This document shows, in pieces, positions 3,394 through 33,431 of a stretch of DNA of 36,366 bases. Position 1 is the first letter of the stretch, and every line of letters starts with the position of its first letter. A program made the position numbers and the translations under genes. Under the pieces are notes generated by a model that worked only from the letters and a program-made list of their open reading frames with translations, did no database searches and was not told where the DNA came from. The stretch spans positions 1 to 36,366 of the forward strand of contig JAQTVA010000002.1 of the NCBI GenBank assembly GCA_028707055.1, given 5' to 3'. The stretch is from Candidatus Bipolaricaulis sp. (lineage in GTDB: Bacteria; Bipolaricaulota; Bipolaricaulia; UBA7950; UBA9294).

Positions 3394-3398
3394 GACAG

Positions 3399-3422
3399 CT
3401 GCACAACATCTGCCTTGTGCAG
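3399..3422 (+). terminator. Hairpin directly after the DinB-fusion stop; possible terminator without a T-tract.
   Basis: CTGCACAA-catctgcc-TTGTGCAG, an 8-bp perfect stem starting 6 nt after the stop at 3391-3393. No U-run follows. Confidence 0.3.
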
Positions 3423-3602
3423 TCGGAGTCAAGCTGAGCTAGACCTGCCCCTCGCTGCCGAGTGTGATGCGCATCACGAAGCCCCAAAGGACGCGAACAG
3501 CGAGCGGCATACAGGATCGTCCTCTTCCGGAATCGCCAGGATTCGTGCCTGACGGTGGACAGCACAGAGCAGTTGGCTCGGTCTGCGACAGCCAGATTCC
3601 TA

Positions 3603-3675
<73 letters not shown>

Positions 3676-3687
3676 GGTGTCAGTCTC

Positions 3688-3716
3688 ATTCTACCAGGGG
3701 CGCTCGAAGCGCTCAA
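3688..3716 (-). promoter_or_regulatory. Sigma70-type promoter of tRNA-Ala (TTGAGC - 17 nt - TGg-TAGAAT).
   Basis: On the minus strand: TTGAGC (3716-3711), a 17-nt spacer ending in TGG, then TAGAAT (3693-3688). The -10 box ends 12 nt before the mature tRNA 5' end. Confidence 0.5.
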
Positions 3717-3729
3717 CGAAGTGGGCGGA

Positions 3730-4012
3730 GCGCTGTTCGTTGGGCTCGTAGGGTTCGTTGAGTTGTGAGGAACTGGGTTCGCGGTGCGGGAAGGTCAAAG
3801 GCGTTCGCAGTGCGCGGTGCGCAGTGCGCGGTTCTCTCGGTTCGTTGAGCTCGTAGGGTTCGTTGGGTTCCGCGGGGGCAGCTGCGTCCGTAATCCGTGG
3901 TTCGGAGTGCGCGGTTCGCGGTTCGTAGTGCGAGAAGGTCAAAGGCGTTCGCAGTGCGCGGTGCGTGGTCCGGGAAGACGAGAGGCGTTCACGGTTCGCG
4001 GTTCGCAGTGCG
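3730..4012. repeat. Intergenic mosaic repeat array A, built from GTTCG-containing words.
   Basis: An exact 32-nt internal duplication GAAGGTCAAAGGCGTTCGCAGTGCGCGGTGCG occurs at 3790-3821 and 3934-3965. Modules GGTTCGTTG(A/G)G..CGTAGGGTTCGTTG recur. The 19-nt ACGGTTCGCGGTTCGCAGT (3991-4009) is identical to 9526-9544. Confidence 0.75.
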
Positions 4013-4030
4013 GGGCCCGAGACCGCGTAG

Positions 4031-4050
4031 CGTCGGGGCTTGCCCCGACG
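4031..4050 (-). terminator. GC-rich hairpin downstream of the gmhB-like gene; possible terminator of the minus-strand operon.
   Basis: CGTCGGGG-CTTG-CCCCGACG, an 8-bp stem about 24 nt after the stop at 4074-4076. There is no U-tract. Confidence 0.3.
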
Positions 4051-4073
4051 GCGGCTGTGCAGGCAGGAGAGGC

Positions 4074-4694
4074 TCAAACGCGCGGCTTGGTGAGGATCAG
4101 ATCTACGGCTTCGGCCAGGTCTGCCACGGTGTAGTCGGGTTCGGCGACGGCCTTGCCGTCTTTGCCGGCGAAGCCGGTGCAAACGAGGATGGTGCGACAG
4201 CCCGCTCGGATGCCGGCGAGGATGTCGGTCGTAGCATCCCCTACCAGGACGGACTTGCGCAGGTTGATACCGAGGTCGTCGCGCGCCTTCTCGAGCATGC
4301 CGGTGCCGGGTTTCCTGTCAGCGCAGTCCTGCGCGTACCTTGTGACCGTCCCGCCGGCGTAGTGGGGACAGTAATAGACGGCATCGACATGCGCGCCTTC
4401 GGCCGCGAGGAGCTTGACCATGCGCTCGTGGATCCGAGCGAGGTCATCCTCAGTCAGGTAGCCGAGGGCGATGCCGCCTTGGTTGGTGACGACGACGACG
4501 GGGATGCCGGTACGGTTGAGGCGGGCGACGGCGGCCGCGGCGCCGGGGAGGAGGTTGAAATCCTCGGGTTCGTTGACGAACCCGGTCTGGTCATTCAGGA
4601 CTCCATCGCGATCTAGGAACACCGCGGCCACTTTCTCGGTGCGCCAGGGGTGGCCGCCTTTCGATCGCGATGGGTTCCCGGTGTCTTGGTTCAC
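4074..4694 (-). CDS. gmhB: HAD-IIIA phosphatase, D-glycero-D-manno-heptose 1,7-bisphosphate phosphatase-like.
   Basis: Motifs FLDRDGVLN (DxDG), CPH...DCADRKPGTGM and LVGDATTDILAG. The start is uncertain. GTG 4694 has GGAG 5 nt upstream; TTG 4748 (track) and GTG 4631 are alternatives. Confidence 0.75.
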   Translation of the reverse strand: MNQDTGNPSRSKGGHPWRTEKVAAVFLDRDGVLNDQTGFVNEPEDFNLLPGAAAAVARLNRTGIPVVVVTNQGGIALGYLTEDDLARIHERMVKLLAAEGAHVDAVYYCPHYAGGTVTRYAQDCADRKPGTGMLEKARDDLGINLRKSVLVGDATTDILAGIRAGCRTILVCTGFAGKDGKAVAEPDYTVADLAEAVDLILTKPRV

Positions 4695-4737
4695 AGTAAC
4701 TCCGTATGAACCCGAGACGATCCGATCCCGGTCATGG

Positions 4738-7650
4738 CTACTTGACAACGAGGGTGACGATCTTGTTGGGGACGCCGATGGCCTTCAGGACCTTCTGCTC
4801 GCCGATCCGGGCGCGAACGTCGTTGTCCGCAAGCGCCGCTTTGGCCAGCCGGTCGGCGTCGGCGGCGACGTCCGCGGGGACGAGGACGCGGGCACGGACC
4901 TTTCCGTTGATCTGTACGGGGATCTCGATCGACTCTTCAGCGAGCGCGGATTCCATGTACTCGGGCCAGCGAACCTCGAGCGGCGAGCCGTCGTGGCCGA
5001 TCCGCCGCCACAGCTCTTCGCCGAGGAACGGGGCGAGCGGCGACAGGAGCAGCACGAGGCCGTCGATCGTCTGGCGCAGGAGTGCGGGGTCGGGTTTCGC
5101 GCTCTCGGCGTAGGGGGCCAGCTCGTTGACGAGTTCCATGATCGCGGCGACGGCGGTGTTGAAGCTGAACCGCTCCTCAAGGTCCTCGGTGACCTTCTTC
5201 ACGGTCTGGTGGTAGCGGCGCCAGAGGGCTCGGCCGGCTTCGTCGAGCGCATCGGGCCTGGGGTCCGCGCCGACGGGAGCGAGGTCGTCCTTGTGGCCGA
5301 CGATGAGTGTCCACACGCGGTTCAGGAACCGGTACGAGCCGCGGATCCCTTCCTCGGACCAGTCGATGTCGCGGTCCGGCGGTCCCATGAACAGGGTGTA
5401 CACGCGCTCGGCGTCGGCGCCGTAGCGGGCGATGATGTCGGCGGGGTCGACGGTGTTCCGCTTCGACTTCGACATCTTGAGGCTCGATACGACGAGCGCC
5501 TCGCCGCACTTGGGGCACGTGTCGCCGGCGGCGACTTCGGTCGGGTGAACCCACCCGTGCTTGGCACAGCGGTACGCCGGGTGGCAGATCATCCCCTGCG
5601 TGAAAAGGCGAGCGAACGGCTCCTTGAACCCGACGTGGCCCATATCGTAGAGGGCCTTGGTGATGAAGCGCGAGTAGAGCAGGTGGAGGATTGCGTGTTC
5701 GACGCCGCCGACGTACTGGTTGACGGGGAGCCAGCGGTCGACGTGCTCGCGGACGAACGCGTGCTCCGCGTCCTTGGGATCGATGTAGCGCAGGTAGTAC
5801 CACGACGAGTCGACGAACGTGTCCATCGTGTCGCCATCGCGCTTCGCCTTCCCGCCGCACTTCGGGCATGGGGTGTCGGCGAACCCGGGGATGTCGGCGA
5901 GTCCCATCTTGCCGATCGTCTTCGCCTCGGGGAGGAGCACGGGGAGGTCCTTCTCCGGCACGGGGACCTCGCCGCACTTCGGGCAGTGGACGATGGGGAT
6001 CGGCGCGCCCCAGTACCGCTGGCGCGAGATCAGCCAGTCGTGGAGGCGGTAATTGACGGCCTCCTTGCCGGTTCCGTTCTTTTCGAGGAAGCGGGTGACC
6101 TCGGCCTTGGCACGCTCGCCCGGCGTGCCCGTGAACTCCGCCGAGGCCATCATCGCCCCGTACTCGGCGTGGAACAGCACGTCGCGGTAGAACTTGCAGC
6201 CCCAGAGCATCTCGAGCACGGAGCGGTGCTTTCCGCAGCCGTGGTAGAGGGCCTTGCAGCGACGGAGGATCTCGGCGTCGGCGGCCACGGAGTCGAGGGC
6301 GATCTGCGTGTCCTCGAACGTGAACACGAACCGGTGGCCGACGATCTCGTTCGAGTGGCCGTGGGCGATGCACTCGCGCATCGCGCGGGCAAAGGCGTCG
6401 ATCTGCTTCTCTCCGCGTAGGGTGACGAACAGGCCGTCACCACCCGCCACCTTCTCGGTCGTGTACTCGATCGACAGGGCCTCCAGGCGCCGCGGGAAGT
6501 CGGCGCACACCGACCCGGGCCAGACGAGGCTCTTCGCCACCTCGTCGACGCGGGCGAGGACGGGAATGATCGGGAGTCCGTACTGGACGGCGAATGCGAA
6601 GTCGCGCTCGTCGTGCGCCGGGACGGCCATGATCGCGCCGGTGCCGTACGTCATCAGCACGTAGTCGGCGATCCAGATGGGGATCTTCTCGCCGTTCACG
6701 GGGTTCACCGCGTACCCGCCGGTGAACACGCCCGTCTTCTCCCGTTCGGTCGACAGACGGTCGATCTCCGTGGCGCGGATCGCGCGGTCGCGGTACGCAG
6801 CGACGGCGTCCCTCTGCTCCCTCGTCGTCAGGCGGTCGACGAGCGGGTGCTCGGGGGCGAGGACCATGAACGTCGCCCCCCACAGGGTATCGGGGCGCGT
6901 CGTGAAGACGACGAGGTCGTCGCCGGTCTCGGCCTTGAACGTCACCTCCGCGCCGACGCTCTTCCCGATCCAGTTCTCCTGCATCTTGACGACGTTTTCC
7001 GGCCAGCGCTCGAGCTGGTCGAGGTCTTGAAGGAGCCGGTCGGCGTAGTCGGTGATCTTGAAGAACCACTGGGTCAGCTCGCGCGGCTCGGGCGTCGTGC
7101 CACACCGCTCGCACGCTCCGCCGACCACCTGCTCGTTCGCGAGCACGGTCTTGCAGTTCGGGCAGTAGTTGACGACCGCCTTCTTGCGGTAGGCGAGCCC
7201 GCGGCTGAAGAGCTGAAGGAAGAGCCACTGGGTCCACTTGTAGTACTCGGGGAGGCAGGTGGTGACCTCGCGCTCCCAGTCGAATTGGACGCCCCACGCG
7301 CGGAACTGGTCGCGGGACTTGGCGATGTTGGCCAGAGTCCACGCGCGGGGATGGGTGTTGTTGTCGATCGCCGCGTTCTCGGCGGGGAGGCCGAACGCGT
7401 CCCATCCCATTGGGTTCAGAACGCGATAGCCGCGCATGATTTTCGTCCGGGTGAAGACGTCGCCGATGATGTAGTTGCGGCCGTGGCCGACGTGCAAGTA
7501 CCCCGAGGGATACGGGAACATGTTCAGGTAGTAGAACCTGTTCTCTTTCGCCTGGGTGTCGACGCGGAAGAAGCCCCGCTCCGACCAGGTACTGTGCCAT
7601 CGCTCTTCGATGGCGTGGAAATCGTACGCCTCAACGTTCTTGCCGGCCAT
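4738..7650 (-). CDS. leuS: Leucyl-tRNA synthetase, 970 aa, with an extra insertion.
   Basis: [21 protein letters not shown] (HIGH), KMSKSKRN (KMSKS), CP1 editing-domain motifs ([30 protein letters not shown]) and [17 protein letters not shown]. Confidence 0.97.
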
Positions 7651-7655
7651 GGTGT

Positions 7656-9146
7656 CTAGACTCCTCGTGCGAAGGTTTCCGCTTCGTCCAGCATTCTCGC
7701 GACCTCTTTCGAGGTCCTCATCTCACAGTACATGCGGAGGATCGGCTCCGTCCCCGACGCACGGAAGAGGAGCCAGCCGTCGGCGAACCGGAGCTTCAAG
7801 CCGTCGAGCGTCTCGACGGCGCGTACCGCCTCGCCGCCGAACCGGTCGGGCGGGTTCGCCTTGAGTTTCTCGACGACCGCGATCCGCCGCTCGATCTCGA
7901 TGTCCCGCCGGCGGTACGCCTGTGGACCGAACGTCTTGTGGAGCGACGCGACGAGGTCGCTCGCCTTCTTCCGCGACGTCGCGAGGATCTCGCACAGGAT
8001 CATCGACCACAAGACGCCGTCCCGCTCGGGGAGGTGCCCGCGCATGCCAAGGCTCCCGCTCTCCTCGCCGGCGATGAGCGCGTCGTGCGTCAGGAGGTGC
8101 TCGGCGGCGAACTTGAACCCGACCGGGGTTTCAATGATCTCAAGGCCGTACGCGTCGGCCATCCGGCGAACGAGGTCGGAGAGGTTGAACGAGACGACGA
8201 CCGGCCCGCGCAGGCCGCGCTCTTCCACCAAGTACCGCAGGATCAGCGCGTAGGTGCGGTGGGCGTCGATGAACGCGCCGGTTTCGTCCATGGCGGAGAT
8301 GCGGTCTCCGTCGCCGTCGGTAACGACGCCGATCAGCCGGTGGCCGACGCGCGGTCGACCAGCGCCGGTGGCGCGGTGGGGGCCTAGGGATCGGATGACG
8401 GCGCGGAGCGGGATCAGGTTCTCTTCGAGCGGCTCGGGTTTGCGCCCACCGAAAAGGACGTCACGCGATCCGCGAACCTGAGTGTAGGCCACGCCGGCTT
8501 CGCGCAGGAGCTCGCCGACGTACCCGAACGCGGAGCCGTACATCGAGTCGACGACGGGGTGGATCTTCGACGCCGTGAGCCGGCTTCGGTCGATGAGTTG
8601 GCGAATGCGGTCGAGGTAAGGGGTCCGCAGGTCGACGCGCTCGATCGCCGTGTCGCGCGGCGCACGGGGTACGGCGTCAGGCAGTCGATCCTCGACGCCG
8701 CGCGTGACCTCGTCGATCGCCGATCCGCCGTATTCGGACTTGATCTTGAGTCCGTTGTACTCCGGCGGGTTGTGGCTGCTCGTGAGCATGATCCCCGCGG
8801 CGGCACGGCGGGCGACGACGGCGTAGGAGACGGCCGGCGTCGCCACGAACGTGTCGCTGACGACGACGGGGACGCCTCGGTCCCGCAACACGCCGGCGAA
8901 GTGAAGGGCAAACTCCTCCGAGAGGAATCGCGTGTCGTACCCCACGACCACTCCACGTTCGGCGGCGCGGAACTCGCACCCCCAGTCCCGGTAGATGCTG
9001 GCCGAACGGCGGTCCGGAGAGCGGAGGTAGTCGGCCACAGCGACGGCGACGCGGCCCACGTTGTCGAACGTGAAGTCGCGGGCGATGACCCCGCGCCACC
9101 CGTCAGTTCCGAACTTCACGTCGTTTGCGTCCCCGCGGCGTGCCAC
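7656..9146 (-). CDS. Phosphomannomutase/phosphoglucomutase (alpha-D-phosphohexomutase family).
   Basis: FGTDGWRG, active-site loop [13 protein letters not shown], metal loop DGDGDR and sugar loop GEESGS. GTG start at 9146. It lies 5 nt upstream of leuS on the same strand. Confidence 0.9.
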
Positions 9147-9399
9147 TGGGCTCTCCTTGCGATGCGCGCGACTTCAGGTGGATTCGCTCGACGTTCGGCG
9201 GGAGCGTCAGGTCCTCCCGCCGCAGAATCGACTCGAGGATGTCGAAGGGGATGGAAGTCTCGACCCAAATGGAGTCGATGTCGACGACGCCGTTCTTGAC
9301 CGGGATGCGGGGCAGTGCGCGTTCGACCGCAACCTTGTAGGACGCGAGCAGGGCGTCGTCGGTTACGTTCCTCTCTTCGTTCTGTTCGTTCATCGGCAA
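9103..9399 (-). CDS. Small hypothetical protein (98 aa), first gene of the minus-strand operon.
   Basis: ATG 9399 has GAGG about 6 nt upstream (CCTCGAGGTTGCCGATG). No family recognised. The 3' end overlaps the phosphohexomutase start. Confidence 0.5.
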   Translation of the reverse strand: MPMNEQNEERNVTDDALLASYKVAVERALPRIPVKNGVVDIDSIWVETSIPFDILESILRREDLTLPPNVERIHLKSRASQGEPSGTPRGRKRREVRN

Positions 9400-9493
9400 C
9401 CTCGAGGAAGCGGATTCGTCCTCTCCGACGGGGTCTCGGACAAGCGTTCGAGAGGGGTCGAAGACGCAGATCCCGTACGGGCTTGCGCTCGGG

Positions 9494-9502
9494 ATGATAC
9501 CA
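9494..9502 (-). promoter_or_regulatory. Extended -10 box TGGTATCAT for the hyp-pmm-leuS-gmhB operon.
   Basis: The minus strand reads GTG-TGG-TATCAT about 90 nt upstream of ATG 9399. It has the same TGGTAnnAT form as three other promoters in the window. Confidence 0.4.
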
Positions 9503-9525
9503 CACGACGGGGAAAGATGAAAGAG

Positions 9526-9765
9526 ACGGTTCGCGGTTCGCAGTTCGGGAAAGGCGAAAGGCGTGCGCAGTTCGCAGTTCGTTGAGTTCGTTGGGTTCGT
9601 TGAGACAAAGGGCGTGGTGCGCAGGATGTTGAGTTCGTTGGGTTCGTCGGGCCGAGCGCGCGGTGCGAAGCGCCGAGAGGCGTCCGGGATCCGTGGTCCG
9701 GGTCAGAACCTGTTCGGTGAGTTCACTGAGTTCATTGGGTTCGTTGGGGCGCTGGGTTCGTGGGC
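9526..9765. repeat. Intergenic mosaic repeat array B, same family as array A.
   Basis: It shares with array A the 19-nt exact ACGGTTCGCGGTTCGCAGT. It also shares GAAAGGCGAAAGGCGTGCGCAGTTCGCAG (A has GAAGGTCAAAGGCGTTCGCAGTGCGCGG). Other shared modules are GTTGAGTTCGTTGGGTTCGTTGAG and TCCGGGATCCGTGGTCCGG (A has TCCGTAATCCGTGGTTCGG). Confidence 0.75.
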
Positions 9766-9818
9766 GGGGAAAAGCCAAGGAGCGGAGCGAGGCCGGTGTA
9801 GGGTGGCCGCGTGGGGTG

Positions 9819-9827
9819 TGGTACAAT
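9819..9827 (+). promoter_or_regulatory. Extended -10 box TGGTACAAT for the protease operon.
   Basis: TG-G-TACAAT ends 20 nt before ATG 9848. GAGGGGG RBS at 9841-9847. Confidence 0.45.
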
Positions 9828-9847
9828 GCGGTTTCATCTTGAGGGGG

Positions 9848-11974
9848 ATGACGTTGACAACACCGCTTCGGTGGCTGGTCACTCTGGCCATCGTTCTTCT
9901 GGGGACTGGCTTTGCGTCATCGGCCGCCGACGGCGTTTCGAGGATCGCGCCGTCGCTTCGGGCCTTCTTGGCCGCGGGAAGCGACGCGACGGCGAGGGGG
10001 CTCGGGGACCTCTGCGAGGTTGAAGTCTCGCCGACCGGGGAAACGCGGCTTCGTGTGCTTGTGCGCACGACGGAGCCGCTCGCATCGTCCTCTCTTGGCG
10101 CCCGAGTGGGGTTCTCCGGGGATGAGATCGCAACCGTGGCGGTGTCGGCCGCCGGTCTCGAGCGGCTGGCGGAGGACGAGCGCGTCATCTACATCGAACC
10201 CTCACGGAAGATGCGCCCAACGGTCGACGCGAGCGTGCCCGCGGTGGGCGCCGATGTCGTCCATACAGCGATTCCTTCGGTGCTCGGCGAGGGCGTCGTG
10301 ATCGGCCTCGTCGACACGGGGATCGACTACGAGCACCTGGACTTCCGTTTCGATGAGGATGGGGACGGTACCGAGGAGTCGTCCCGAATCCTGGCGATCT
10401 GGGACCAAACGTACGGCCTCTTCGGGGCTGAGTACGACCGGGACGACGTCGAGTCGGATCTTGCTTTCGGGCATGGGCCGAGCGAAGGGATCGTCCGCGA
10501 GAAGGATGCAAACGGGCACGGAACCCACGTCGCGAGCATCGCGGCCGGGGATGGCTCGTCGTCAGGGTACGGGTTCGTCGGCGTCGCACCGGCGGCGTCG
10601 ATCGTCGCCGTCAAGACGACCTTCTACACGGCCGACATCCTTGAGGGGGTGGAGTACATCCTCGACAAGGCGGACGCGCTCGACGCGCCGGTGGTCGTGA
10701 ACCTCAGCCTGGGCGGGCACGAGGGGCCGCATGATGGGACATCCCTGTTCGAGCGAGGGCTGGCGGGACTCGCGGACGGCACGGGCCGCGTAATCGTCGT
10801 CTCCGCGGGGAACGAGGGGGATGAGGAGATCCACGTCTCGGGGACGCTGCAGAGCGGCTCCAAGGCTTTCCGAGTCAAACCGGACACCTGGCAGTTTGAG
10901 CTTTCGCTCTGGTATCCCGGCGATGCCCGGTTTGCCGTGACGGTGACGTCGCCTTCGGGGGCGACGGCGGTTGCCCTGCCCGGGGCATCCAGCGGGTACG
11001 TCGCGACGCCCGACGGTGTCGCGTACGTGGACAACGCGGCGGACGGAGTGAACCCGAACAACGGAGATCGCGAGGTCTACCTCCGCCTGAGCGGGGTCGC
11101 CGCAGGCGCAATCTGGACCGTGGCGGTCCGCCGGCTGTCCGGAAGCGGGCGTTTCGACGCTTGGGTCACGTCGACGGGCTCGATCGTCAATGGAGACTCG
11201 GTGTCGACGATCGACGAGCCGGGGAATGCGGAGGGCGTGATCACCGTCGGCGCGTGGACGACGAAGTCGACGTGGCCGTCGAAGGCCGGCGCGCAGGACT
11301 ACACGTCTTCGCACGAGGTCGACGGCCTCTCGGGCTTCTCGAGTCAGGGTCCGACGCGCGACGGGAGACTGAAGCCGGATCTGGTCGCACCGGGCGCGTG
11401 GATCTGCGCGGCGCTGTCGACGAGCGCCGCGGCGTTCGACTACCTCACCCATCCTGACGGCGTGCATGGGATGCAGCTTGGAACGAGCATGGCGGCCCCG
11501 CACGTCTCGGGAGCCGCGGCCCTCCTCTTGTCGGTCGACAGGACACTGACCGTGGGGAAGATCCTTACTGCGCTCACGTCGACGGCGACGCGCGACGCGT
11601 ACACGGGCACGACGCCGAACATGCGGTGGGGGTACGGGAAGCTCGCCGTCGTGGCGGCTCTCGAGAACCTGGAAGCGGAGGAACCGCCGCTTCCGCCTGT
11701 CGACGTTCCCGAGATCGGGTTGGAGGAAAACCCAGTGTCGGGCGAGGCGCGGTTCACATACGTCCTGCCGAACGGGACGGGGATGGCTGTCCTTCGCGTG
11801 TACACGGTCTCAGGGATCCTGGTGTTCGAGGCGGATCTCGATGTGGACGACGATGCCTACACATGGGCCCTCGTGTCGCGCCATGGTGAGCCGCTGGCCG
11901 CGGGGCTGTACCTGTACGTCGTCGTGACGGACCGCGGCGCGTCGGAGGTGGGAAAGTTGGTGATCCATCCGTGA
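9848..11974 (+). CDS. Secreted subtilisin-like serine protease (S8) with a C-terminal T9SS-sorting / FlgD-Ig-like beta-sandwich domain.
   Basis: Signal peptide MTLTTPLRWLVTLAIVLLGTGFASSAADG. Catalytic motifs LVDTGIDYEH (Asp), HGTHVASIAAG (His), SAGNEG (Asn) and GTSMAAPHVSGAAALL (Ser). The last ~85 aa are NPVSGEARFTYVLP..AVLRVYTVSGILV..GEPLAAGLYLYVVV..GKLVIHP. The track ORF start at 9563 lies inside repeat array B and is rejected. Confidence 0.9.
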   Translation: MTLTTPLRWLVTLAIVLLGTGFASSAADGVSRIAPSLRAFLAAGSDATARGLGDLCEVEVSPTGETRLRVLVRTTEPLASSSLGARVGFSGDEIATVAVSAAGLERLAEDERVIYIEPSRKMRPTVDASVPAVGADVVHTAIPSVLGEGVVIGLVDTGIDYEHLDFRFDEDGDGTEESSRILAIWDQTYGLFGAEYDRDDVESDLAFGHGPSEGIVREKDANGHGTHVASIAAGDGSSSGYGFVGVAPAASIVAVKTTFYTADILEGVEYILDKADALDAPVVVNLSLGGHEGPHDGTSLFERGLAGLADGTGRVIVVSAGNEGDEEIHVSGTLQSGSKAFRVKPDTWQFELSLWYPGDARFAVTVTSPSGATAVALPGASSGYVATPDGVAYVDNAADGVNPNNGDREVYLRLSGVAAGAIWTVAVRRLSGSGRFDAWVTSTGSIVNGDSVSTIDEPGNAEGVITVGAWTTKSTWPSKAGAQDYTSSHEVDGLSGFSSQGPTRDGRLKPDLVAPGAWICAALSTSAAAFDYLTHPDGVHGMQLGTSMAAPHVSGAAALLLSVDRTLTVGKILTALTSTATRDAYTGTTPNMRWGYGKLAVVAALENLEAEEPPLPPVDVPEIGLEENPVSGEARFTYVLPNGTGMAVLRVYTVSGILVFEADLDVDDDAYTWALVSRHGEPLAAGLYLYVVVTDRGASEVGKLVIHP

Positions 11975-12831
11975 CGCGACGGCGCCGCTCCCTGTCGTTT
12001 CTGTGTGTGCTGGCCGTCGTCGGCGCCGCTCTGGTCGGGGTTCGAGCGGCGGCCACGGAAGCCCTCGGGGATCTTTTCCGCGTCGGCGTATCGGCGCGCG
12101 CACTGGGGATGGGGGGCGCGTTCACGGCGCTCGCCGAGGACGAAGCCGGGGTGCTGTACAACCCGGCGAAGCTCGCCGGCCACCGCGGGCTTGGCCTCTC
12201 GTCGCTCTACGCATCCCAGTTCGGAGGGGTGACGCAGGGGTCGGTGATCGTGGCCGGTCCGTACGTCGGCGGCGGGATCGTGTTCCTCGACTCGGGACTG
12301 ATCGACGACGGAGAAGACGGCTTCCGGTACGCCAGCCGGGCGGCGCTGTTCGGGGTGGGAGTCCCGGTGGGGCCGGCTGCCATGGGCGTCGGTTGGCGAT
12401 TCCTGAGCGTCGCGACCCCATTCACCGGAAGCGGTTGGGCGCTCGATGCCGCGGTCGCCCTGGACATTGAGTTCCTCCATGTGGGGCTGGTGTACGAGGC
12501 GGTGGTCTCGGCGCCGATGGCCTACGAAGGCGGTGCGCGGGAAGAGTGGGACTCCGGGCTGCGCTTCGGTGTGGCGACGTCCCTGTCGCCGGCGGAGGGC
12601 GTGGTGTGGACAGCGTCGTTCGACGGGACGGGACTTCTCGGTCCGGCGCCCGGGATCGCGGCCGGAGTCGAGGCCTGGGTCGGCGGCGTCGGGGCTCGCG
12701 TGGGGTACGATGGAGCAGGGATGACGTTTGGGCTTTCGGCGCGGTTCGTGGGGCTCGAAGTGGACTGGGCCTACGCGGCGAGAGATGATCTCGGAGACAG
12801 TCACCGGATTACGCTTGCGTTGCGCTTCTAA
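11971..12831 (+). CDS. PorV/PorQ-like (FadL-type) outer-membrane beta-barrel protein.
   Basis: GTG 11971 overlaps the protease stop (GTGA). It has a signal peptide, the signature FRVGVSARALGMGGAFTALAEDEAGVLYNPAKLAG, alternating beta-strand pattern, and a C-terminus ..ITLALRF with terminal Phe as beta-signal. Confidence 0.7.
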   Translation: MTRRRRSLSFLCVLAVVGAALVGVRAAATEALGDLFRVGVSARALGMGGAFTALAEDEAGVLYNPAKLAGHRGLGLSSLYASQFGGVTQGSVIVAGPYVGGGIVFLDSGLIDDGEDGFRYASRAALFGVGVPVGPAAMGVGWRFLSVATPFTGSGWALDAAVALDIEFLHVGLVYEAVVSAPMAYEGGAREEWDSGLRFGVATSLSPAEGVVWTASFDGTGLLGPAPGIAAGVEAWVGGVGARVGYDGAGMTFGLSARFVGLEVDWAYAARDDLGDSHRITLALRF

Positions 12832-12844
12832 CTGCGTGGTGCTT

Positions 12845-15800
12845 ATGGGAAAGAGATGGATCGTCATTCTCGTCGTCGCCGGGATGGCTCTCGTCGGAGC
12901 CGCGGTGTACGGAGAAGAGGAAGGGTTCGCCGTCTCGAGCGGCGAGGGAGCGACCCGCTTCACGGGCAGCTACAGCGGCCGGAAGACGTGGACGATCGGC
13001 TTCGGATTCGGCGACGCCCTCGCGCTGGCCTACGCAGGCCTCTCGTCGGGCTCGATCTCGCTTGAGCAGACTCTTGCGGTGGACATCGAGGCGACCGCCC
13101 TCGGGGTTCTGCGCGTCGAGGCGCACTTCGACGACCAAGAGGACGAGAGTCTGCAGTCACTGTCCATCTACCTCGACACGGAGCGTCTCGACGGTGTGGC
13201 CGGCGACTTCATCGTCCCAGACATGGGCAGTTTCTCCACCTACTCCCGCAAGCTCAAGGGAGCGCGCCTCGACTACCACTGGGGCATCGCGACGATCACG
13301 GGTATCGCGTCGAAGCTCGAGGGCGTCACGGAGTCGAAGACGTTCACCGGGGAGACAGCCGAGCTCTACGTCGTATTCCGAAGAGCGGACCCGGACAGCG
13401 GTGAAGCGGCCTCGTACCTGGAGAACCTCGAAGGGCTGGCGTCGTTCCCGCTCGTCTCCCTGTACGTCGAGGAGTTCGCCGACGTGCGGATGATCCTCGA
13501 CCTGTCGAGCGGGTTGCGGAGCCTCCTTGCGGAGTACGGTGTGAGCGAACTGGCGGACGCGCTCGAGGGGTATGAGGGGAAGGATCTCCTGACGTCGGAG
13601 TTCTCGGTGATCGGAGACGATCCTGAGTACCTCGTGCTGCGAGCGGCTCCGGTGACGATCCTGCGGCGAACGATCAAGGAAGCGATCGAGGCGTACAACG
13701 ACGAGGTCGACGGGGAGATGGTGTACCCGTTCTCGTCCGGAAGCGACGCGGAGACGCAGTTCCTCGCCGAAGTGCTCGCGTACGCGTCGATCGCGGTCCA
13801 CGGGGACCGCTACGGCGTGCGCGACGCGGAGAGATCCCTCCACTTCGACCTTGGGGAGACCGATGCCATCGCGGAGTCGCTCGAGATCGAGATCGATCCG
13901 GACGGCTCGGGGTACCGTTGGATCAGCGAGGCGACGTGGCCTGACTACGGCGTTCTGGTCTACGAAGAGGAAGGGATCCTCGAGATCCGTCTCCCCGAGG
14001 AGACGGTGACCCATCCCGACGCGGCGCTGCGGGTCACGGTCTCGTACGAAGTCACCGGCGGCGCGTACAGCTTGGGTTTCTCGGTGGTCCCGGGGACGGA
14101 GCGGATCACGCGGAACAGCGTGCTCCTCGTCCGGGACATCGACTACTCGATCGATTACGAGATCGGGTACGTCGTGCTGTTCACGGAGATCGGCGCGACC
14201 GACGAGTTGACGATCGAGTACGAGCGGTACGGAAGCGGGTCGGTGGATTACGCACGCTACTTTTCGGGAGTCACAGTCGATATTCCCCTGCCGGGGTTTG
14301 CCCTCGACCTGTATCTGCTGCAGGCGAGTGACGACTCCGGATCGATCGACGACAGAGAGAGCGTCAGCACGATGCCGAACCGGCAGGTCGTCGCCGGGGC
14401 GTCGGGGGTGCTCGAGCTTCCCGACACCACCGCGAAGTTCGACGTCGGGTACGTGAACGACCGGTATCCCTACGACGACAACCAGCGGACTCCCCTGCGA
14501 AACCGAGTCAACGCACTCGCTTCTGGCTTCGGCTTCGTCCTCGTCGGCCATGACGCGGGGTTCAGCGTGCTCTCCGACGGGGAGTGGCAGGCGTACGACA
14601 GCGGCGACGGTCTGGCGGGGCGTTCCGTTCGGGCGATCGCCCTGTCCGACGCCTACGCGTTCCTCGGCACGAACGGCGGGCTTTCCGTCGTGGCGCTGGA
14701 CGGGATCTCGCCGTTCGACCACGCGTCGGGTTGGACGGAGTTCTACGACAGCGACGGGCTTCCGGACTCGTCGGTGCGTGCCCTTCTCCTCGACGGGGGC
14801 ACGCTGTACGCAGGCACCGACGCCGGAGTCGCCTCCGTCGCCGTGACGCAGATCGAGGATGCCAAGGCCTGGGCCAGGCTCATCGGAGACGAGTACGGCG
14901 CGGTGACGGCCCTTGCCCTCTCCGGAACACTGCTTTACGTGGGGACGGAGAGCGGGCTCATCACCTATGACCGCGTAACGCACGCGACGGCCGTCGTCGC
15001 TGGGACATCCGGCGTCGCCACGCACGCACTGCACGTCGAGGAGGACGCGGTGTACGCGGCGTCGGCCAGCGGCCTGTGCAGCTACGTCGACGGCGTCGAG
15101 GTAGGATGGATTGTGCGAGGGGTGGCCGTGTACGCCGTCGCGTCGCGGGACGGCGACCTGTACTACGGCACCGCGAACGGCATGGTCCGGGTGTCGGATG
15201 GAACAGCCTGGCATGCGGGCTGGGTCGTTTCGGCCATGGCGAGCGCGGAAGACGGGGTGTGGGCGGGCAGCGAGGCGAACGGCGGATATGAGCTCTGGGT
15301 GTGGAGGCTGGCCGACGGCGAGGTCGCCTACGACGCGGACACGATGGAGGTCAGCGGCGCCAACCCTTACAAGTACGAGGACACCCCGAGCGACGAGCAT
15401 ATGGCGACCGGCTGGGTCGTGAGCGGCTCGTTCGATCACTCGTCCGACGGGTTCTCCCTCTCGGGCACGGTGGACCGGGTTCAAGAGGGGTATCGCTCGA
15501 TTGGCGAGCGGTCACGAAGCGACGGCGGCGGGTGGACCCTCGACGGATCGATCGCCCTCGGCCCGAGCGCGAAACTCGAACTCGCCCACAGCTACGAGAT
15601 GAGCGACCTGACGACGAGCCAGCGGGTCGCGACGTTGGAGAACGACCTCTCGTTCACAGGGCGGTTCGGCCCGACGATCGTCGTGCGCCTCCACCAGGAG
15701 AGCGAGGACGCAAGCCGGAGCGTGCACGGCGCGGAGACGGATCAGGTCTCGTACAGCCTCTCCGTGGACGACAAGCTGTTCGCCGACACCGTTCGGGCGA

Positions 15801-16816
15801 CGATCGACTGGAAGGAATCGTTCCTGTGGGAAGAGGGCTCCGCCCCTAGCCGGAGCGCCGTCTTGGCCTCCGGCGCCTCGTGGAGCTTCGTGCCGGGATG
15901 GACGTCCACGTTCTCGTGGCGTCGCCCGGTCTACGTGTCGGGAGACCAGTGGTCGGGCAGCGAGAGGTTCACGTGGGGCGTCGACGGTGCGGCGACGTTC
16001 GCCGGAGTCCAGGTCCTGTCGGAGTACGACGGCAGACGGACGCGTTCGTTGCCGAACGGCACGGCGACGTTCGATCACACCGGGCGCGTGCGCTTGGCCG
16101 TCAGTCCGTTCACGTGGCAAGGCGGCAAGATGACTCCGAACCTCGACCTGTCGGGAGAGTGGGACGACGGCGAGGTGTCGCTGACGGGAAAGCTGAACCT
16201 TCGCTCCGTCTGGGCGTCCCTCTCGGGGCGCACAGCGCTCACCGTAGGCGTCACGGGGCTCGGCGAGAGCGTCGAGCGGTGGTCGGAGAAGGTAACATCG
16301 ACCTGGAGTTACACCGGGATCGCTTCGTTGCGACCCACCCTGACGTACTCGGCCAGCCGGGCGACGGCGACGTACGGCGACGGCACCGATGAAACGACGA
16401 GCCACTCGCTCTCCGGGCGGGCGACGTGGAGTTCCCCGCGAGGCGACTCGGACACCGTCGCGGCCACGGTCCGCTGGCAGTCCGGCGACGAGACGGACGT
16501 GTCCGTCTCGCTGGAGAACTCGTACCAGCGGGACATCACCCCATGGATCTCGAGTCTGGCCTCGCCGCAGTCTGCGAGCCAGGTCGCGGTCCCAAGCCCG
16601 TACCCGATGGTCACGGTGGGATCCGACGTCGCGGCGGATTGGGACTACGAGGACGAGGCTTCGGACGCGCGTTGGACGGTCTCCGGAGATACGACCGTCG
16701 TTCTGTCGACGATGTGGAGCGCGTCCCTTTCGGTGGTGTACTCCGGCGGGTGGACCGAGTCCGGCACATGGTACCACGGCGCCTGGTTTGCCCTGACCGT
16801 GGCGATCGACTTCTAG
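12845..16816 (+). CDS. Giant outer-membrane protein (1323 aa). The N-terminal region is SprA/Sov-like, a seven-blade propeller-like block sits centrally, and the C-terminal part is barrel-like.
   Basis: ATG 12845 gives the signal peptide MGKRWIVILVVAGMALVGAAVYG. The N-terminal pattern is LRVEAHFDDQEDESLQSLSIYLD..GDF..RKLKGARLDYHWG..ITGIASKLEG. Seven V.A...(L)Y.GT..G repeats span 14507-15304. Beta-rich S/T/W/Y alternation follows, ending ..LTVAIDF. Confidence refers to the CDS; the SprA-like assignment is much less certain (about 0.4). Confidence 0.8.
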   Translation: MGKRWIVILVVAGMALVGAAVYGEEEGFAVSSGEGATRFTGSYSGRKTWTIGFGFGDALALAYAGLSSGSISLEQTLAVDIEATALGVLRVEAHFDDQEDESLQSLSIYLDTERLDGVAGDFIVPDMGSFSTYSRKLKGARLDYHWGIATITGIASKLEGVTESKTFTGETAELYVVFRRADPDSGEAASYLENLEGLASFPLVSLYVEEFADVRMILDLSSGLRSLLAEYGVSELADALEGYEGKDLLTSEFSVIGDDPEYLVLRAAPVTILRRTIKEAIEAYNDEVDGEMVYPFSSGSDAETQFLAEVLAYASIAVHGDRYGVRDAERSLHFDLGETDAIAESLEIEIDPDGSGYRWISEATWPDYGVLVYEEEGILEIRLPEETVTHPDAALRVTVSYEVTGGAYSLGFSVVPGTERITRNSVLLVRDIDYSIDYEIGYVVLFTEIGATDELTIEYERYGSGSVDYARYFSGVTVDIPLPGFALDLYLLQASDDSGSIDDRESVSTMPNRQVVAGASGVLELPDTTAKFDVGYVNDRYPYDDNQRTPLRNRVNALASGFGFVLVGHDAGFSVLSDGEWQAYDSGDGLAGRSVRAIALSDAYAFLGTNGGLSVVALDGISPFDHASGWTEFYDSDGLPDSSVRALLLDGGTLYAGTDAGVASVAVTQIEDAKAWARLIGDEYGAVTALALSGTLLYVGTESGLITYDRVTHATAVVAGTSGVATHALHVEEDAVYAASASGLCSYVDGVEVGWIVRGVAVYAVASRDGDLYYGTANGMVRVSDGTAWHAGWVVSAMASAEDGVWAGSEANGGYELWVWRLADGEVAYDADTMEVSGANPYKYEDTPSDEHMATGWVVSGSFDHSSDGFSLSGTVDRVQEGYRSIGERSRSDGGGWTLDGSIALGPSAKLELAHSYEMSDLTTSQRVATLENDLSFTGRFGPTIVVRLHQESEDASRSVHGAETDQVSYSLSVDDKLFADTVRATIDWKESFLWEEGSAPSRSAVLASGASWSFVPGWTSTFSWRRPVYVSGDQWSGSERFTWGVDGAATFAGVQVLSEYDGRRTRSLPNGTATFDHTGRVRLAVSPFTWQGGKMTPNLDLSGEWDDGEVSLTGKLNLRSVWASLSGRTALTVGVTGLGESVERWSEKVTSTWSYTGIASLRPTLTYSASRATATYGDGTDETTSHSLSGRATWSSPRGDSDTVAATVRWQSGDETDVSVSLENSYQRDITPWISSLASPQSASQVAVPSPYPMVTVGSDVAADWDYEDEASDARWTVSGDTTVVLSTMWSASLSVVYSGGWTESGTWYHGAWFALTVAIDF

Positions 16817-16821
16817 GTGGG

Positions 16822-17139
16822 CTAGCCGCCGCCGATCGGCGGAAGAAAGGCGACGGCGTCGCCGTCGGCGAGTTCTGTGGCGTTGCCGGTGAGAAACCGC
16901 ACGTTCCGCCCGTTCACGAGCACGTTCAAGTACCCCTCAGACACGCCTCGGCGCAACGCATCGGCGAGCGTGGGGTCTTTCTGATCGAGGATCGAGAGCA
17001 ACCCGTCCACGGTCGTGCCGGGGAGGATGGGTACGCGCAAATTCGAGCGATCCTCGCGGTCGCGCAGACCGCCGAAGACCTTGACCGTCACACTGGGGCC
17101 GGCTTCTTGGGATGTCGTCTTCTCTTTCTCTCCATCCAT
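16822..17139 (-). CDS. MoaD/ThiS-family ubiquitin-like sulfur-carrier protein (105 aa).
   Basis: VTVKVFGGLRD...LNVLVNGRNV...LADGDAVAFLPPIGGG with C-terminal Gly-Gly. ATG at 17139 (MDGEKEK..). The upstream part of the 189-aa track ORF is Arg-rich and non-homologous. Confidence 0.75.
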   Translation of the reverse strand: MDGEKEKTTSQEAGPSVTVKVFGGLRDREDRSNLRVPILPGTTVDGLLSILDQKDPTLADALRRGVSEGYLNVLVNGRNVRFLTGNATELADGDAVAFLPPIGGG

Positions 17140-17223
17140 CGCTCTTCGGGTATACCCGGCGCCCGCGGGCGATGCAACCCGCGCCCGGCGTCCACAAAGC
17201 AAGACATCGGCCGGACTCAGCTG

Positions 17224-17250
17224 TTGTCGGCCCCGGAGTGCCGCTATAAT
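17224..17250 (+). promoter_or_regulatory. Possible metG promoter (TTGTCG - 15 nt - TATAAT).
   Basis: A perfect TATAAT at 17245-17250 ends 35 nt upstream of GTG 17286. The -35 match is weak and the spacer is short. Confidence 0.35.
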
Positions 17251-17285
17251 CCGCACTATCCTTTCGAAGCGGGAAGCAGGCGTCG

Positions 17286-19247
17286 GTGGACAAGTCAAGG
17301 GTTCTGATCTGCAGCGCGTGGCCGTATGCCTCCGGGATTCCTCACCTCGGGAACCTCGTGAGCTCGCTCCTTTCCGGCGACGTGTTCGCACGCTACTACC
17401 GCCTGCGCGGCAAGGACGTCGTCTACGTCTCCGGGACCGACGCTCACGGGACGAAGATCGAGTTCGAGGCTCGGAAGCTGGGGATCACGCCGCTCGCGCT
17501 TGCGACGCGAACCCACGAGAGCATCTGTGCGATCCTCGAGGCGTTCAACATCCGGTTCGACAACTACACGACGACGGAGTCCGAGACCCACAAGCGGTTC
17601 GTGCGCGACATCTACCTGGACATGGAGAAGAACGGGTACATCCGAACCCAGCTCGAGTCGCGGGCGTACTGCAGGCGCTGCAAACGATTCCTTGCCGACC
17701 GGTTCATCAGCGGAACGTGCCCGCGCTGCGGCTCCGCGGACGCCTTGGGCGACCAGTGTGACTCCTGCGGCTCGATCCTCGAGCCGGAGGAGTTGGTCTC
17801 GCCCACCTGCAGTTTCTGCAACGAGAGCGACATCGAGTTCCGCGAGACCAAGCACTGGTACCTCGATCTTCCGAAACTGGCGCGCCCGTTGACGTCCTAC
17901 GTTCGATCGCGCGGGTTCCAGGGCAACGTCCACCTGTTCACCCAGCAGATGATCGACGACGGCCTGAAGCCGCGGGCGATGACCCGCGACATCGATTGGG
18001 GAATTCCGGCGCCGTTTGAGGGCGCCGAGGGAAAGGTCATCTACGTCTGGGGCGAAGCCGCCCTCGGCTACGTCTCCGCGACGATCGAGCACCTCGGGTG
18101 CGACGGACGGTGGAAAGAGTTTTGGTTCGGAGACGACGTTCACCAGATCTACACGATCGGCAAGGACAACATCCCGTTCCACTCGCTCATCTTTCCCGGA
18201 CAGCTGATCGCGTCGGGACGCGGATACCACCTTCCGGATCAGATCGCGGCGACGGAGTACCTGAACTGGATCGGCGGCGAGGGCTTTTCCAAGACCCGCG
18301 GCGTCGGGCTCTATTGCGATGAGGCGCTCCGCATGATGGGCGCCGAGCTCTGGCGCTTCTACCTGCTCTACAACCGCCCCGAGGCGCGAGACGTCAACTT
18401 CTCGTGGGAGGAGTTGGAGAAGGCCGTGAACGGCATTCTGATCTCGAACGTCGCCAACCTGATCAACCGAGTGCTGTCGTTCATCCAGACGCATCAGGAG
18501 GGGACGATCGCCGACGTGCCCACGGACGCCGAGGTTGTCGAGCAGCTGGAGAAGGCCGTCGCGGCATACGAGAAGGCCGTCGACGAGGGATTCCTCGGAG
18601 CTGCGCTGCGCGGGGCCTGTGACCTGGCCGTGTTCGGCAACGAGTACTTCCAGCGGAAGCGCCCGTGGGCGACGAACGATGCCGCGGCCGTGGCGAGCGC
18701 GGCGGATCTCGTCAAGGGGATCGCGATCCTCCTTCTGCCCTACGTCCCCACGTTCGCATCGGCCGTGCTGCGCGTCCTGCGCATCGACTCGCCGGCGTGG
18801 AGCGATCTCGACCGGCGACTCGGGGGAACGAGAGTGGCCGACGATCGCGTCCTCCTCGAGCGGATCGACGTCGAGGTCCTGCGCGAACAGGTCGTGGCGA
18901 AGCCGGCCGCGACGGCGGCGGAGCCCACGACGGTGTCGTTCGCGGACTTCTCCAAGCTGGATCTTCGCGTCGGCGTGATCCGCGAGGCGGAGCCGGTGGC
19001 CGGGGCCAGTCGGCTGTATCGCCTCACGGTCGACCTCGGGACGGAGGCGCGGACGTGTGTCGCCGGAATCCGAGGGAGCTACGAGGCCGGCGAGCTTGTC
19101 GGAAAGTCCGTGGTCGTCGTCACAAACCTGGAGAGAAGGACGATCCGCGGGATCGAGTCGGAAGCGATGCTGCTTGCGGCTCAGGGGACGCCGCTCGCCC
19201 TCATCGGCCCGGAGCGACTCGTCGATCCCGGGACGCCCGTAGGGTAG
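17286..19247 (+). CDS. metG: Methionyl-tRNA synthetase with C-terminal EMAP/Trbp111-like tRNA-binding domain.
   Basis: SAWPYASGIPHLGNLV (HIGH-type), zinc knuckles CRRCKRF..CPRCG..CDSCG..CSFC, GFSKTRGVG (KMSKS-type), and C-terminal DLRVGVIREAEPVAGASRLYRLTVDLG...VVVVTNLERRTIRGIESEAMLLAA. Confidence 0.95.
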   Translation: MDKSRVLICSAWPYASGIPHLGNLVSSLLSGDVFARYYRLRGKDVVYVSGTDAHGTKIEFEARKLGITPLALATRTHESICAILEAFNIRFDNYTTTESETHKRFVRDIYLDMEKNGYIRTQLESRAYCRRCKRFLADRFISGTCPRCGSADALGDQCDSCGSILEPEELVSPTCSFCNESDIEFRETKHWYLDLPKLARPLTSYVRSRGFQGNVHLFTQQMIDDGLKPRAMTRDIDWGIPAPFEGAEGKVIYVWGEAALGYVSATIEHLGCDGRWKEFWFGDDVHQIYTIGKDNIPFHSLIFPGQLIASGRGYHLPDQIAATEYLNWIGGEGFSKTRGVGLYCDEALRMMGAELWRFYLLYNRPEARDVNFSWEELEKAVNGILISNVANLINRVLSFIQTHQEGTIADVPTDAEVVEQLEKAVAAYEKAVDEGFLGAALRGACDLAVFGNEYFQRKRPWATNDAAAVASAADLVKGIAILLLPYVPTFASAVLRVLRIDSPAWSDLDRRLGGTRVADDRVLLERIDVEVLREQVVAKPAATAAEPTTVSFADFSKLDLRVGVIREAEPVAGASRLYRLTVDLGTEARTCVAGIRGSYEAGELVGKSVVVVTNLERRTIRGIESEAMLLAAQGTPLALIGPERLVDPGTPVG

Positions 19248-33402: not shown

Positions 33403-33431
33403 ATTATAGGGACGCCGTTTCGGGCATTCAA
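33403..33431 (-). promoter_or_regulatory. Near-consensus sigma70 promoter of tRNA-Pro, and probably of dnaX-ybaB (TTGAAT - 17 nt - TATAAT).
   Basis: On the minus strand: TTGAAT (33431-33426), a 17-nt spacer, then TATAAT (33408-33403), 11 nt before the tRNA 5' end. The -35 box overlaps the stop codon of the upstream vWA gene. Confidence 0.6.

Follow-up and report, generated by a model that had tools for sequence, protein, structure and literature searches.

The window analysed here, 36 kb of Candidatus Bipolaricaulis DNA (G+C ~66%), contains three adjacent genes whose products appear to correspond to the cargo, the carrier and the outer-membrane pore of a type IX secretion system, or T9SS. The original prediction for this DNA had proposed such a cassette of a secreted protease, a PorV-like barrel and a half-size SprA-like protein on the + strand, and the list of open reading frames (ORFs) holds three genes with the same ends, here called P1, P2 and P3:

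9848-11974, + strand: P1, 708 amino acids (aa), a secreted S8 subtilase and presumed cargo.
11971-12831, + strand: P2, 286 aa, a predicted small outer-membrane barrel of the PorV/PorQ family and presumed carrier for the C-terminal domain (CTD) of P1.
12845-16816, + strand: P3, 1323 aa, a predicted giant outer-membrane barrel of SprA/Sov type.

The junctions between these genes are tight. The tetranucleotide GTGA at 11971-11974 contains both the GTG start of P2 and the overlapping TGA stop of P1, exactly as had been claimed, and the ATG of P3 at 12845 lies 13 nucleotides (nt) after the P2 stop codon (TAA at 12829-12831). Translational coupling of P1 and P2 is predicted, and because the stop and start codons overlap, cargo and carrier would be made in approximately equal amounts. 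Signal-peptide-like segments open all three proteins. The short motifs quoted in the original prediction are all present, as are the terminal residues that it gave for P2 (...LALRF) and P3 (...VAIDF). Proteins that the β-barrel assembly machinery (BAM) inserts typically end in Phe, and this residue is the last in 17 of the 22 homologs of P2 and in 25 of the 31 homologs of P3, a pattern that would fit BAM-inserted proteins.

A fundamental question is whether P3 can be regarded as a SprA-type pore at all. The AlphaFold2 (AF2) model of P3, calculated for a construct from which the propeller (aa 553-830) was deleted, has a mean predicted local distance difference test (pLDDT) value of 84.8 and contains ~36-38 long strands, which divide into 9 at the N-terminus, 4 ahead of the deletion point and 25 beyond it. 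When this model is compared with the PDB by Foldseek, the four best matches are SprA chains, with E values of 7.5e-15, 7.8e-15, 1.0e-13 and 3.1e-9 and query TM-scores (TMq) of 0.42-0.56. The matches that follow are ApoB100 (8e-7, ~8 orders of magnitude weaker than the best) and LptD (1e-5, TMq <0.2). The resulting architecture of P3 is as follows:

aa 1-23: signal peptide.
12959-13381, + strand (aa 39-179): N-terminal block of ~9 barrel strands with the motifs GRKTWT and VEAHFDDQ, placed from DSSP of the model and from invariant columns.
13436-14248, + strand (aa 198-468): alpha/beta domain that forms an insert among the strands of the barrel, from DSSP of model residues 175-445; no family match.
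14069-14350, + strand (aa 409-502): segment most similar to SprA, with the motif GS.RVT.NG..L.RD.DY.IDYE.G, matched by TIGR04189 positions 598-638.
14501-15334, + strand (aa 553-830): beta-propeller of Reg_prop type inserted in the barrel, which resembles the PorZ propeller as well.
15401-16813, + strand (aa 853-1323): ~25 long antiparallel strands that make up the C-terminal part of the barrel, with the terminal Phe (model residues 552-1021, pLDDT mostly >85).

The original prediction had described P3 as half the length of SprA, with a truncated pore. The length is indeed about half (1323 aa, as compared with 2403 aa for SprA in 6h3i_A and ~2300-2500 aa, large extracellular cap domains included, for SprA/Sov translocons in general), but the pore is probably not truncated, because the model contains ~36-38 long strands and SprA is a 36-strand barrel (PMC10994853). 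From the model, P3 appears to be a SprA-like barrel of full size that is shorter outside the barrel: unlike SprA, it does not have most of the sequence that SprA carries there, and it has inserts of its own in the form of the alpha/beta domain and the Reg_prop propeller.

Profile searches point in the same direction. TIGR04189, the SprA model, matches 29 of 31 members of the P3 family, with a best E value of 2.3e-8. In the reverse direction, a profile built from the P3 family matches SprA (6h3i_A) in the PDB with an E value of 7.8e-4, beside strong matches to Reg_prop propellers, and when the propeller is left out of the profile SprA becomes the sole match in the whole PDB (E 4.1e-5). The matching segments are collinear, such that profile positions 59-155, 412-499 and 849-1024 align with SprA residues 166-267, 699-784 and 2180-2362, respectively. 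The alignment to SprA residues 699-784 contributes 20.1 bits for the P3 segment at aa 409-502, the E value of 4.1e-5 being that of the whole protein. The resemblance to SprA had originally been placed in the N-terminal third of P3; a collinear segment is present there (SprA 166-267, propeller-less profile) and is weak at 2.6 bits, whereas the strongest similarity lies at aa 409-502. The general claim of similarity between P3 and SprA/Sov is thus borne out by structure (the top four Foldseek matches) and by sequence profiles.

A single-sequence phmmer search with P3 against 1.84 billion proteins returned 160 matches at E <=0.001, and these link P3 to the SprA family. One relative of 1975 aa (P0215), reached at E 6e-9, exceeds the TIGR04189 cut-off of 200 bits with a score of 314.8, and three others of 1735-2157 aa (P0211, P0227 and P0228) score 143-159 bits. 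By length, the relatives of P3 fall into a graded series (1300-1460, 1545-1729 and 1735-2157 aa), and this series joins P3 to canonical SprA because its largest members score 143-314.8 bits on the SprA model. The same single sequence run against PDB sequences gave only noise. For the propeller, the family profile finds the sensor kinases 4a2l/3ott at E 3e-19 to 2e-18 and reaches 5m11 (deposited as 'Immunoreactive 84kD antigen PG93', which we take to be PorZ) at E 0.021. The PorZ model NF052228 matches 5 of the 31 P3-family members as well as the P3 homologs at loci L060 and L058, and precomputed annotation assigns PF07494 to P3 homologs.

A separate observation concerns the region of P3 at aa ~395-470, which contains the DY.IDYE.G motif common to P3 and SprA. 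Weak matches to the phage tail-tube and distal-tail models NF052337 and TIGR02217 are found in this region and in the homologous segments of P0210, P0214, P0219, P0228 and the P3-like protein of L060, and in some distant P3 relatives the segment is present 4-5 times. Possibly, the segment represents a small beta domain that is repeated and more widely distributed.

The AF2 model of P2 (pLDDT 87, predicted TM-score 0.80) consists of 14 strands that follow an N-terminal hatch-like segment bearing the conserved motif ARALGMGGAF...YNPA. In a Foldseek comparison it is closest to PorV (8gl6_F, E 3.3e-10, TMq 0.75), followed by FadL and CymD at ~2e-6 with TMq <=0.6. A profile of the P2 family likewise finds PorV in the PDB (6h3i_F, E 1.4e-7) with an alignment that spans the N- and C-terminal parts. 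The assignment of P2 to the PorV/PorQ type, as first proposed, is therefore upheld by fold and by profile, and a generic FadL transporter is ruled out on the same two comparisons. BAM-associated barrels were also considered, and the BAM-complex chains of Bacteroidota (9n2d_B and 9hiv_F) reach only ~2-4e-5, much below PorV. Homologs of P2 pass the NF033709 model directly (94.1 bits in L060, 103.3 in L061, 123.8 in L118 and 141.4 in L139), and distant homologs are annotated with PF03687, PF19572 (PorV) or PF11751. P2 is predicted from this modelling to be a PorV-like 14-strand barrel, ~100 aa shorter than PorV itself. Its only Cys lies in the signal peptide and its last barrel strand is the C-terminal end.

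P1 matches Pfam Peptidase_S8 with an E value of 2.6e-45 and has a catalytic triad, placed by motif position, at D156/H224/S547, in agreement with its first description as an S8 protease. The protein is organized as a signal peptide, a propeptide-like N-terminus, the S8 catalytic domain and a C-terminal domain of sorting type:

11693-11971, + strand: P1 CTD (aa 616-708, the last 93 residues), similar to T9SS type-A and FlgD-Ig domains and conserved among orthologs.

The tail had been proposed to be a sorting domain from the spacing of its residues. In the window it is a weak match to the type-A model TIGR04183 (15.4 bits against a cut-off of 23), with 15.6 bits for FlgD_ig and 14.6 bits for CHU_C, and its relatives at three other loci are above the cut-off: 46.6 bits in L061 (which also scores 38 on PF18962, cut-off 27), 27.6 bits in L060 (PF18962 not listed) and 36.7 bits in L118. 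A profile search with the CTD in a library of 5.8 billion entries returned only 13 short fragments, and the fragments related to it are annotated PF18962 or PF13860. Of 114 aligned CTDs, 111 have K or R at the position of K703 (motif GKLVI), and in solved complexes of type-A CTDs a conserved Lys near the end bonds to PorV loops (PMC10994853). Taken at its weak match, the P1 tail would be a sorting domain of type-A/FlgD-Ig-like character.

The arrangement of the three genes was followed in other genomes. A scan of GTDB species genomes with two family-specific peptide patterns, which is no guide to absence of the family from other phyla, yielded 62 P3 loci, and gene order around them was determined by local tblastn with P1 (catalytic part and tail), P2 and P3. 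The order P1-P2-P3 is observed in nearly all of the ~50 genome loci with enough upstream DNA, and a metagenome scan with the P1 tail added ~48 further trios. Across these ~100 Bipolaricaulota-type loci P3 identity falls to ~32%. Conservation of the trio in relatives, which the original prediction could only ask for, is therefore established, and because the trio persists as a unit in ~100 independent contigs it is not a product of chance. Inspection of three loci whose P3 homologs are 41%, 35% and 32% identical to P3 reveals an S8 protease, a protein of ~285 aa and one of ~1300 aa in the same order, with the genes overlapping or nearly abutting. P1 orthologs located directly upstream of P2/P3 homologs are 707-725 aa long, and at L003 the order of the trio is kept though the downstream synteny differs. 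When every ORF of all loci (~1.3 Mb) was searched with a hidden Markov model (HMM) of the tail, the cassette-adjacent matches were in P1 orthologs only. At one Bipolaricaulota locus (L011:1-6000), two tail-bearing protease ORFs (2-1834 and 2692-4905) lie ahead of the P3 homolog, with a P2 homolog (1942-2688) between them.

Related arrangements are found in other lineages. Three contigs labelled 'Bacillota bacterium' (L060, L061 and L064) carry P3 homologs of 27-28% identity, and the cargo of this lineage keeps the CTD and adjoins P2 and P3 homologs; in L060 and L061 it is a different, larger, fervidolysin-like S8 protease with PKD domains, and in L061 the gene order is P2-cargo-P3. The P3 relatives of 1545-1729 aa (P0183 and P0193) come from metagenome-assembled genomes labelled Firmicutes and Limnochordaceae. 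Limnochordia are regarded as diderm Bacillota, and pores of SprA type may be a mark of several diderm lineages beyond the Fibrobacteres-Chlorobi-Bacteroidetes (FCB) group. At three loci of other uncultured bacteria (L118:66-6239, L123:123-6163 and L139:1158-6468), a CTD protein of 1400-1700 aa is followed directly by a PorV/PorQ-family gene whose product passes NF033709. The CTD proteins of L118 and L123 are above the cut-off for type-A sorting domains, and that of L139 has no NCBIfam match, its CTD being seen by tblastn only. No SprA-like gene is found near these pairs in 4-5 kb of downstream DNA. Their CTDs and barrels are homologous to the P1 CTD and P2, and these pairs differ from the trio in that the cargo is a large non-protease and no pore gene adjoins it. 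Cargo-carrier gene pairs thus seem widespread.

What kind of cell would house this operon? P2 is 100% identical to a protein from a metagenome-assembled genome of 'Candidatus Bipolaricaulis sp.'. The P3 homologs that carry names come from Bipolaricaulota, which NCBI taxonomy places among the candidate phyla, outside the FCB group. In the closed genome of Candidatus Bipolaricaulis anaerobius, an atypical diderm, lipopolysaccharide (LPS) genes were reported absent and a single secreted peptidase, of S8/S53 type, was described (PMC6092417); we infer this sole peptidase to be the P1 ortholog. Sec is the only secretion system listed in the metabolic-model figure legend for this organism (Ran1; PMC6092417), and a word search of the Ran1 supplementary files did not find 'gliding' or 'secretion'. 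The labels given by submitters to cassette-bearing contigs L007-L064 disagree and include Bipolaricaulota, 'Thermotogota', 'uncultured Thermotogae', 'Atribacteria', 'Neomarinimicrobiota' and 'Bacillota'; most of these labels probably reflect mislabelling or mis-binning and not true hosts.

Taken together, the fold assignments, the gene order and the biology of the host lead us to consider it probable that this operon is a self-contained module for outer-membrane export or surface display of the cell's main extracellular protease. The signal peptide indicates that P1 would cross the inner membrane via Sec. P3, by structural and profile homology, is predicted to sit in the outer membrane as a ~36-strand SprA-like barrel. 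If the solved SprA-PorV-CTD structures are a guide, P2 would dock at a lateral opening in P3, and the P1 CTD would lie in the lumen of P3 bound by the loops of P2. The P1-P2 complex would then leave the pore sideways, and P1 might either remain attached to P2 at the cell surface or be released. Given the reported absence of LPS, a PorU-type sortase is unlikely to attach P1 to it, which leaves retention on P2 or release as the two candidate fates. None of the four outcomes that the original prediction had named as counting against it (a P3 unlike SprA, a plain FadL-type P2, an unmatched tail and an unconserved trio) was observed.

The closest known system is the core of the Flavobacterium johnsoniae T9SS, in which SprA, PorV and a substrate with a type-A CTD form a complex (PDB 6H3I and 8GL6). 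The similarities extend to all three components: P3 has ~36 predicted strands and SprA as its best structural match, the 14-strand carrier P2 is closest to PorV, P1 also ends in a CTD of ~90 aa of type-A/FlgD-Ig kind, which close to its terminus has the conserved basic residue, and Sec signal peptides are likewise found on all three proteins. The differences are that the three genes here form one operon, that the host is a member of Bipolaricaulota, outside the FCB group, with LPS reported absent, and that PPI, Plug, SprE, SkpA and motor genes are not seen near the trio; indeed, no T9SS genes besides the trio are seen in the 36-kb window or in the listed flanks (<=10 kb per side) of related loci.

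In its gene linkage the trio is similar to type B cargos, for which the carrier gene adjoins the cargo gene. Type B cargos such as SprB use a dedicated carrier of the PorP/SprF family (SprF in this case), to which the cargo remains attached at the cell surface (PMC12635249; PMC9143113). A 1:1 relation of this sort is also suggested here, where the stop codon of P1 overlaps the start codon of P2, and a dedicated stoichiometric carrier fits that overlap better than a shared catalytic shuttle. Unlike type B carriers, P2 belongs to the PorV/PorQ family and does not have their periplasmic, Cys-containing C-tail; the CTD of its cargo is type-A-like and the translocon gene lies in the same operon. 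The combination of a CTD-bearing protease, a PorV/PorQ-family barrel and a Reg_prop-like propeller is also reminiscent of the PorU-PorV-PorQ-PorZ complex of Porphyromonas gingivalis, except that P1 is a serine protease of the S8 family and not of the PorU type, the propeller is inserted in the pore protein and is not a separate CTD protein, and no LPS acceptor is expected. A functional analogy, with no homology, can be drawn to two-partner secretion (type Vb), where a secreted protein is likewise encoded beside its dedicated outer-membrane exporter; there, the exporter TpsB belongs to the Omp85 barrels, with 16 strands and POTRA domains, and the signal is an N-terminal TPS domain.

Several results weigh against an export module of SprA type. 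Although the three components belong to known superfamilies, the P1 tail, P2 and P3 of the window are each under the curated family cut-off, unlike their counterparts in F. johnsoniae. The P1 tail falls short on TIGR04183, as given above. For P2, NF033709 gives 40 bits against a cut-off of 90 and covers the N-terminal motif only, and Pfam has no match. For P3, the TIGR04189 match is confined to aa 409-448 and reaches 20.8 bits (E 4.7e-5), where the cut-off is 200 bits, and Pfam, its SprA_N models included, has no match to the protein or to any of its sub-regions. The P3 model is that of a construct without its propeller. Linkage is also not universal: two deep-branching P3 homologs of 26-29% identity (L052:5863-9825 and L058:5884-9978), which score 31 and 39 bits on TIGR04189, have no P1 or P2 neighbour and instead have PriA and an HtrA/DegP protease upstream. 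Finally, release of the carrier-substrate complex from SprA in Flavobacterium requires energy from the PorLM/GldLM motor (PMC10994853).

This last point bears on an alternative hypothesis, namely that what is seen in the cassette is only a part of a complete T9SS of the ordinary kind, whose PorK/L/M/N, PorU/PorZ, PorW/SprE and other components are encoded elsewhere in the genome, in which case it would be neither compact nor autonomous. The scattering of T9SS genes in Bacteroidota and the need of SprA for a motor (PMC10994853) are in keeping with such a system, as is the unlinked P3 homolog of L052 and L058, and the present view of the window's genome is limited to ~36 kb. The evidence on the other side is indirect and consists of the TXSScan survey, in which T9SS was found in Bacteroidetes only (PMC4793230), the Sec-only figure legend for Ran1 (PMC6092417), the outcome of the word search in its supplementary files, and a window and listed flanks that contain no further T9SS genes. 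We regard this explanation as unlikely. Another hypothesis is that P1 is not simply a cargo and acts as a PorU-like processing enzyme, such that the cassette would be a fused translocon and attachment complex serving CTD proteins encoded elsewhere. PorU is a protease that retains its CTD, and in Bipolaricaulota and the L060-type lineages alike the CTD protein next to the cassette belongs to the S8 proteases, even though the proteases themselves differ. The attachment complex of P. gingivalis consists of PorQ, PorU, PorV and PorZ (PMC12365241), and the propeller of P3 matches PorZ models. This propeller is, however, far closer to those of sensor kinases than to PorZ, all cassette-adjacent CTD-HMM matches in the ~1.3 Mb of related loci are P1 orthologs, and LPS, the acceptor used by PorU, is reported absent in these bacteria. 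Moreover, PorU is a cysteine protease of a fold unrelated to S8, and a PorU-like role for P1 therefore strikes us as quite improbable.

It could also be asked whether P3 has anything to do with protein export. An envelope organiser, a conduit for lipids or polymers or a large porin might be encoded in an operon with P1 and P2 simply through shared envelope biogenesis; the envelope of Bipolaricaulota is unusual, P3 is under the SprA family cut-off, and LptD, FimD, Deinococcus SlpA and the Mtr complex are among its weaker Foldseek matches (E 1e-5 to 1e-4). The SprA matches are nevertheless 8-10 orders of magnitude better and span the whole P3 model, the sequence links from P3 lead specifically to SprA, and the P3 gene is tightly coupled to genes for a PorV-like protein and a protein with a CTD, which correspond to the two partners that SprA is known to have. 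A barrel without a part in export is for these reasons very improbable.

Returning to the export module for P1, a further-reaching hypothesis can be formulated, which we hold tentatively and with some doubt. The trio may be an autonomous, motor-independent minimal type IX system, in which no more than a SprA-like pore and a PorV-like carrier that is used once would be needed to bring one protease across an LPS-free outer membrane and display it. Such a system would also be present in Limnochordia-like Bacillota, and it would be either ancestral to the ~20-component T9SS of Bacteroidota or derived by ancient transfer of its core.

T9SS has been described as confined to Bacteroidota/FCB, with ~20 components and a proton-driven motor (PMC4793230, PMC10994853, PMC12398890), and a three-gene cassette in an LPS-free phylum beyond the FCB group would shift the origin of the translocon well outside Bacteroidota. 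It would offer a natural minimal version in which to ask which parts of SprA are needed for transport, and it makes testable whether release of carrier and cargo requires a motor. Bipolaricaulota are common in anaerobic digesters and the subsurface, and the cassette would explain how one extracellular protease passes the outer membrane of these amino-acid-fermenting bacteria, for which no secretion system was annotated before. A module of three genes could in addition become a small surface-display system. The original prediction had held the cargo-shuttle-pore cassette to be undescribed, and no paper on the operon was found in the open-access literature or bioRxiv, nor one tying Bipolaricaulota, Acetothermia or Limnochordia to T9SS components; what is undescribed in these sources comprises the operon arrangement, the half-length pore with its propeller insert, the host phylum and the LPS-free envelope. 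Linkage of cargo and carrier, by contrast, has precedent in type B carriers (PMC12635249) and in pairs such as those of L118, L123 and L139.

The surroundings of the operon contain a few further features. Downstream, a convergent ThiS-like gene ends 5 nt past the P3 stop. Farther along the window, the only domain recognised in a 909-aa protein encoded on the - strand at 33431-36157 is of von Willebrand factor A type (E 1.8e-18), and this protein is without a P1-type sorting tail. Upstream, a small ORF on the - strand at 9103-9399 (98 aa, no Pfam match) is divergent from the operon and lies between a phosphoglucomutase-like gene and P1; at the same position, L001, L003 and L004 have a gene of 80-107 aa that is also without a Pfam match.

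Signals for expression of the operon are partly recognisable in the DNA ahead of P1:

9819-9827, + strand: candidate extended -10 box TGGTACAAT, upstream of the operon, read from the sequence.

This box had been pointed out in the original prediction and is present, but a sigma-70 scan of 9300-17400 found no full -35/-10 promoter pair, and the box stays a candidate promoter element. Within 9841-9856, a GAGGGGG box directly abuts the ATG of P1 at 9848, a spacing that is unusually short. Because the TTG at 9854, two codons into P1, is normally spaced from the box, it may be an alternative start, and P1 would then begin two codons later. In the intergenic region 9529-9764 upstream of P1, three clusters of direct repeats with a period of 9 nt and the consensus GTTSRGTTC are observed, for example GTTGAGTTCGTTGGGTTCGTTGAG. 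The 13-nt pattern GTTSRGTTCRTTG occurs in 3 copies within 9529-9764 and nowhere else in the window, with 0 expected, and the repeat clusters may constitute a regulator-binding array.

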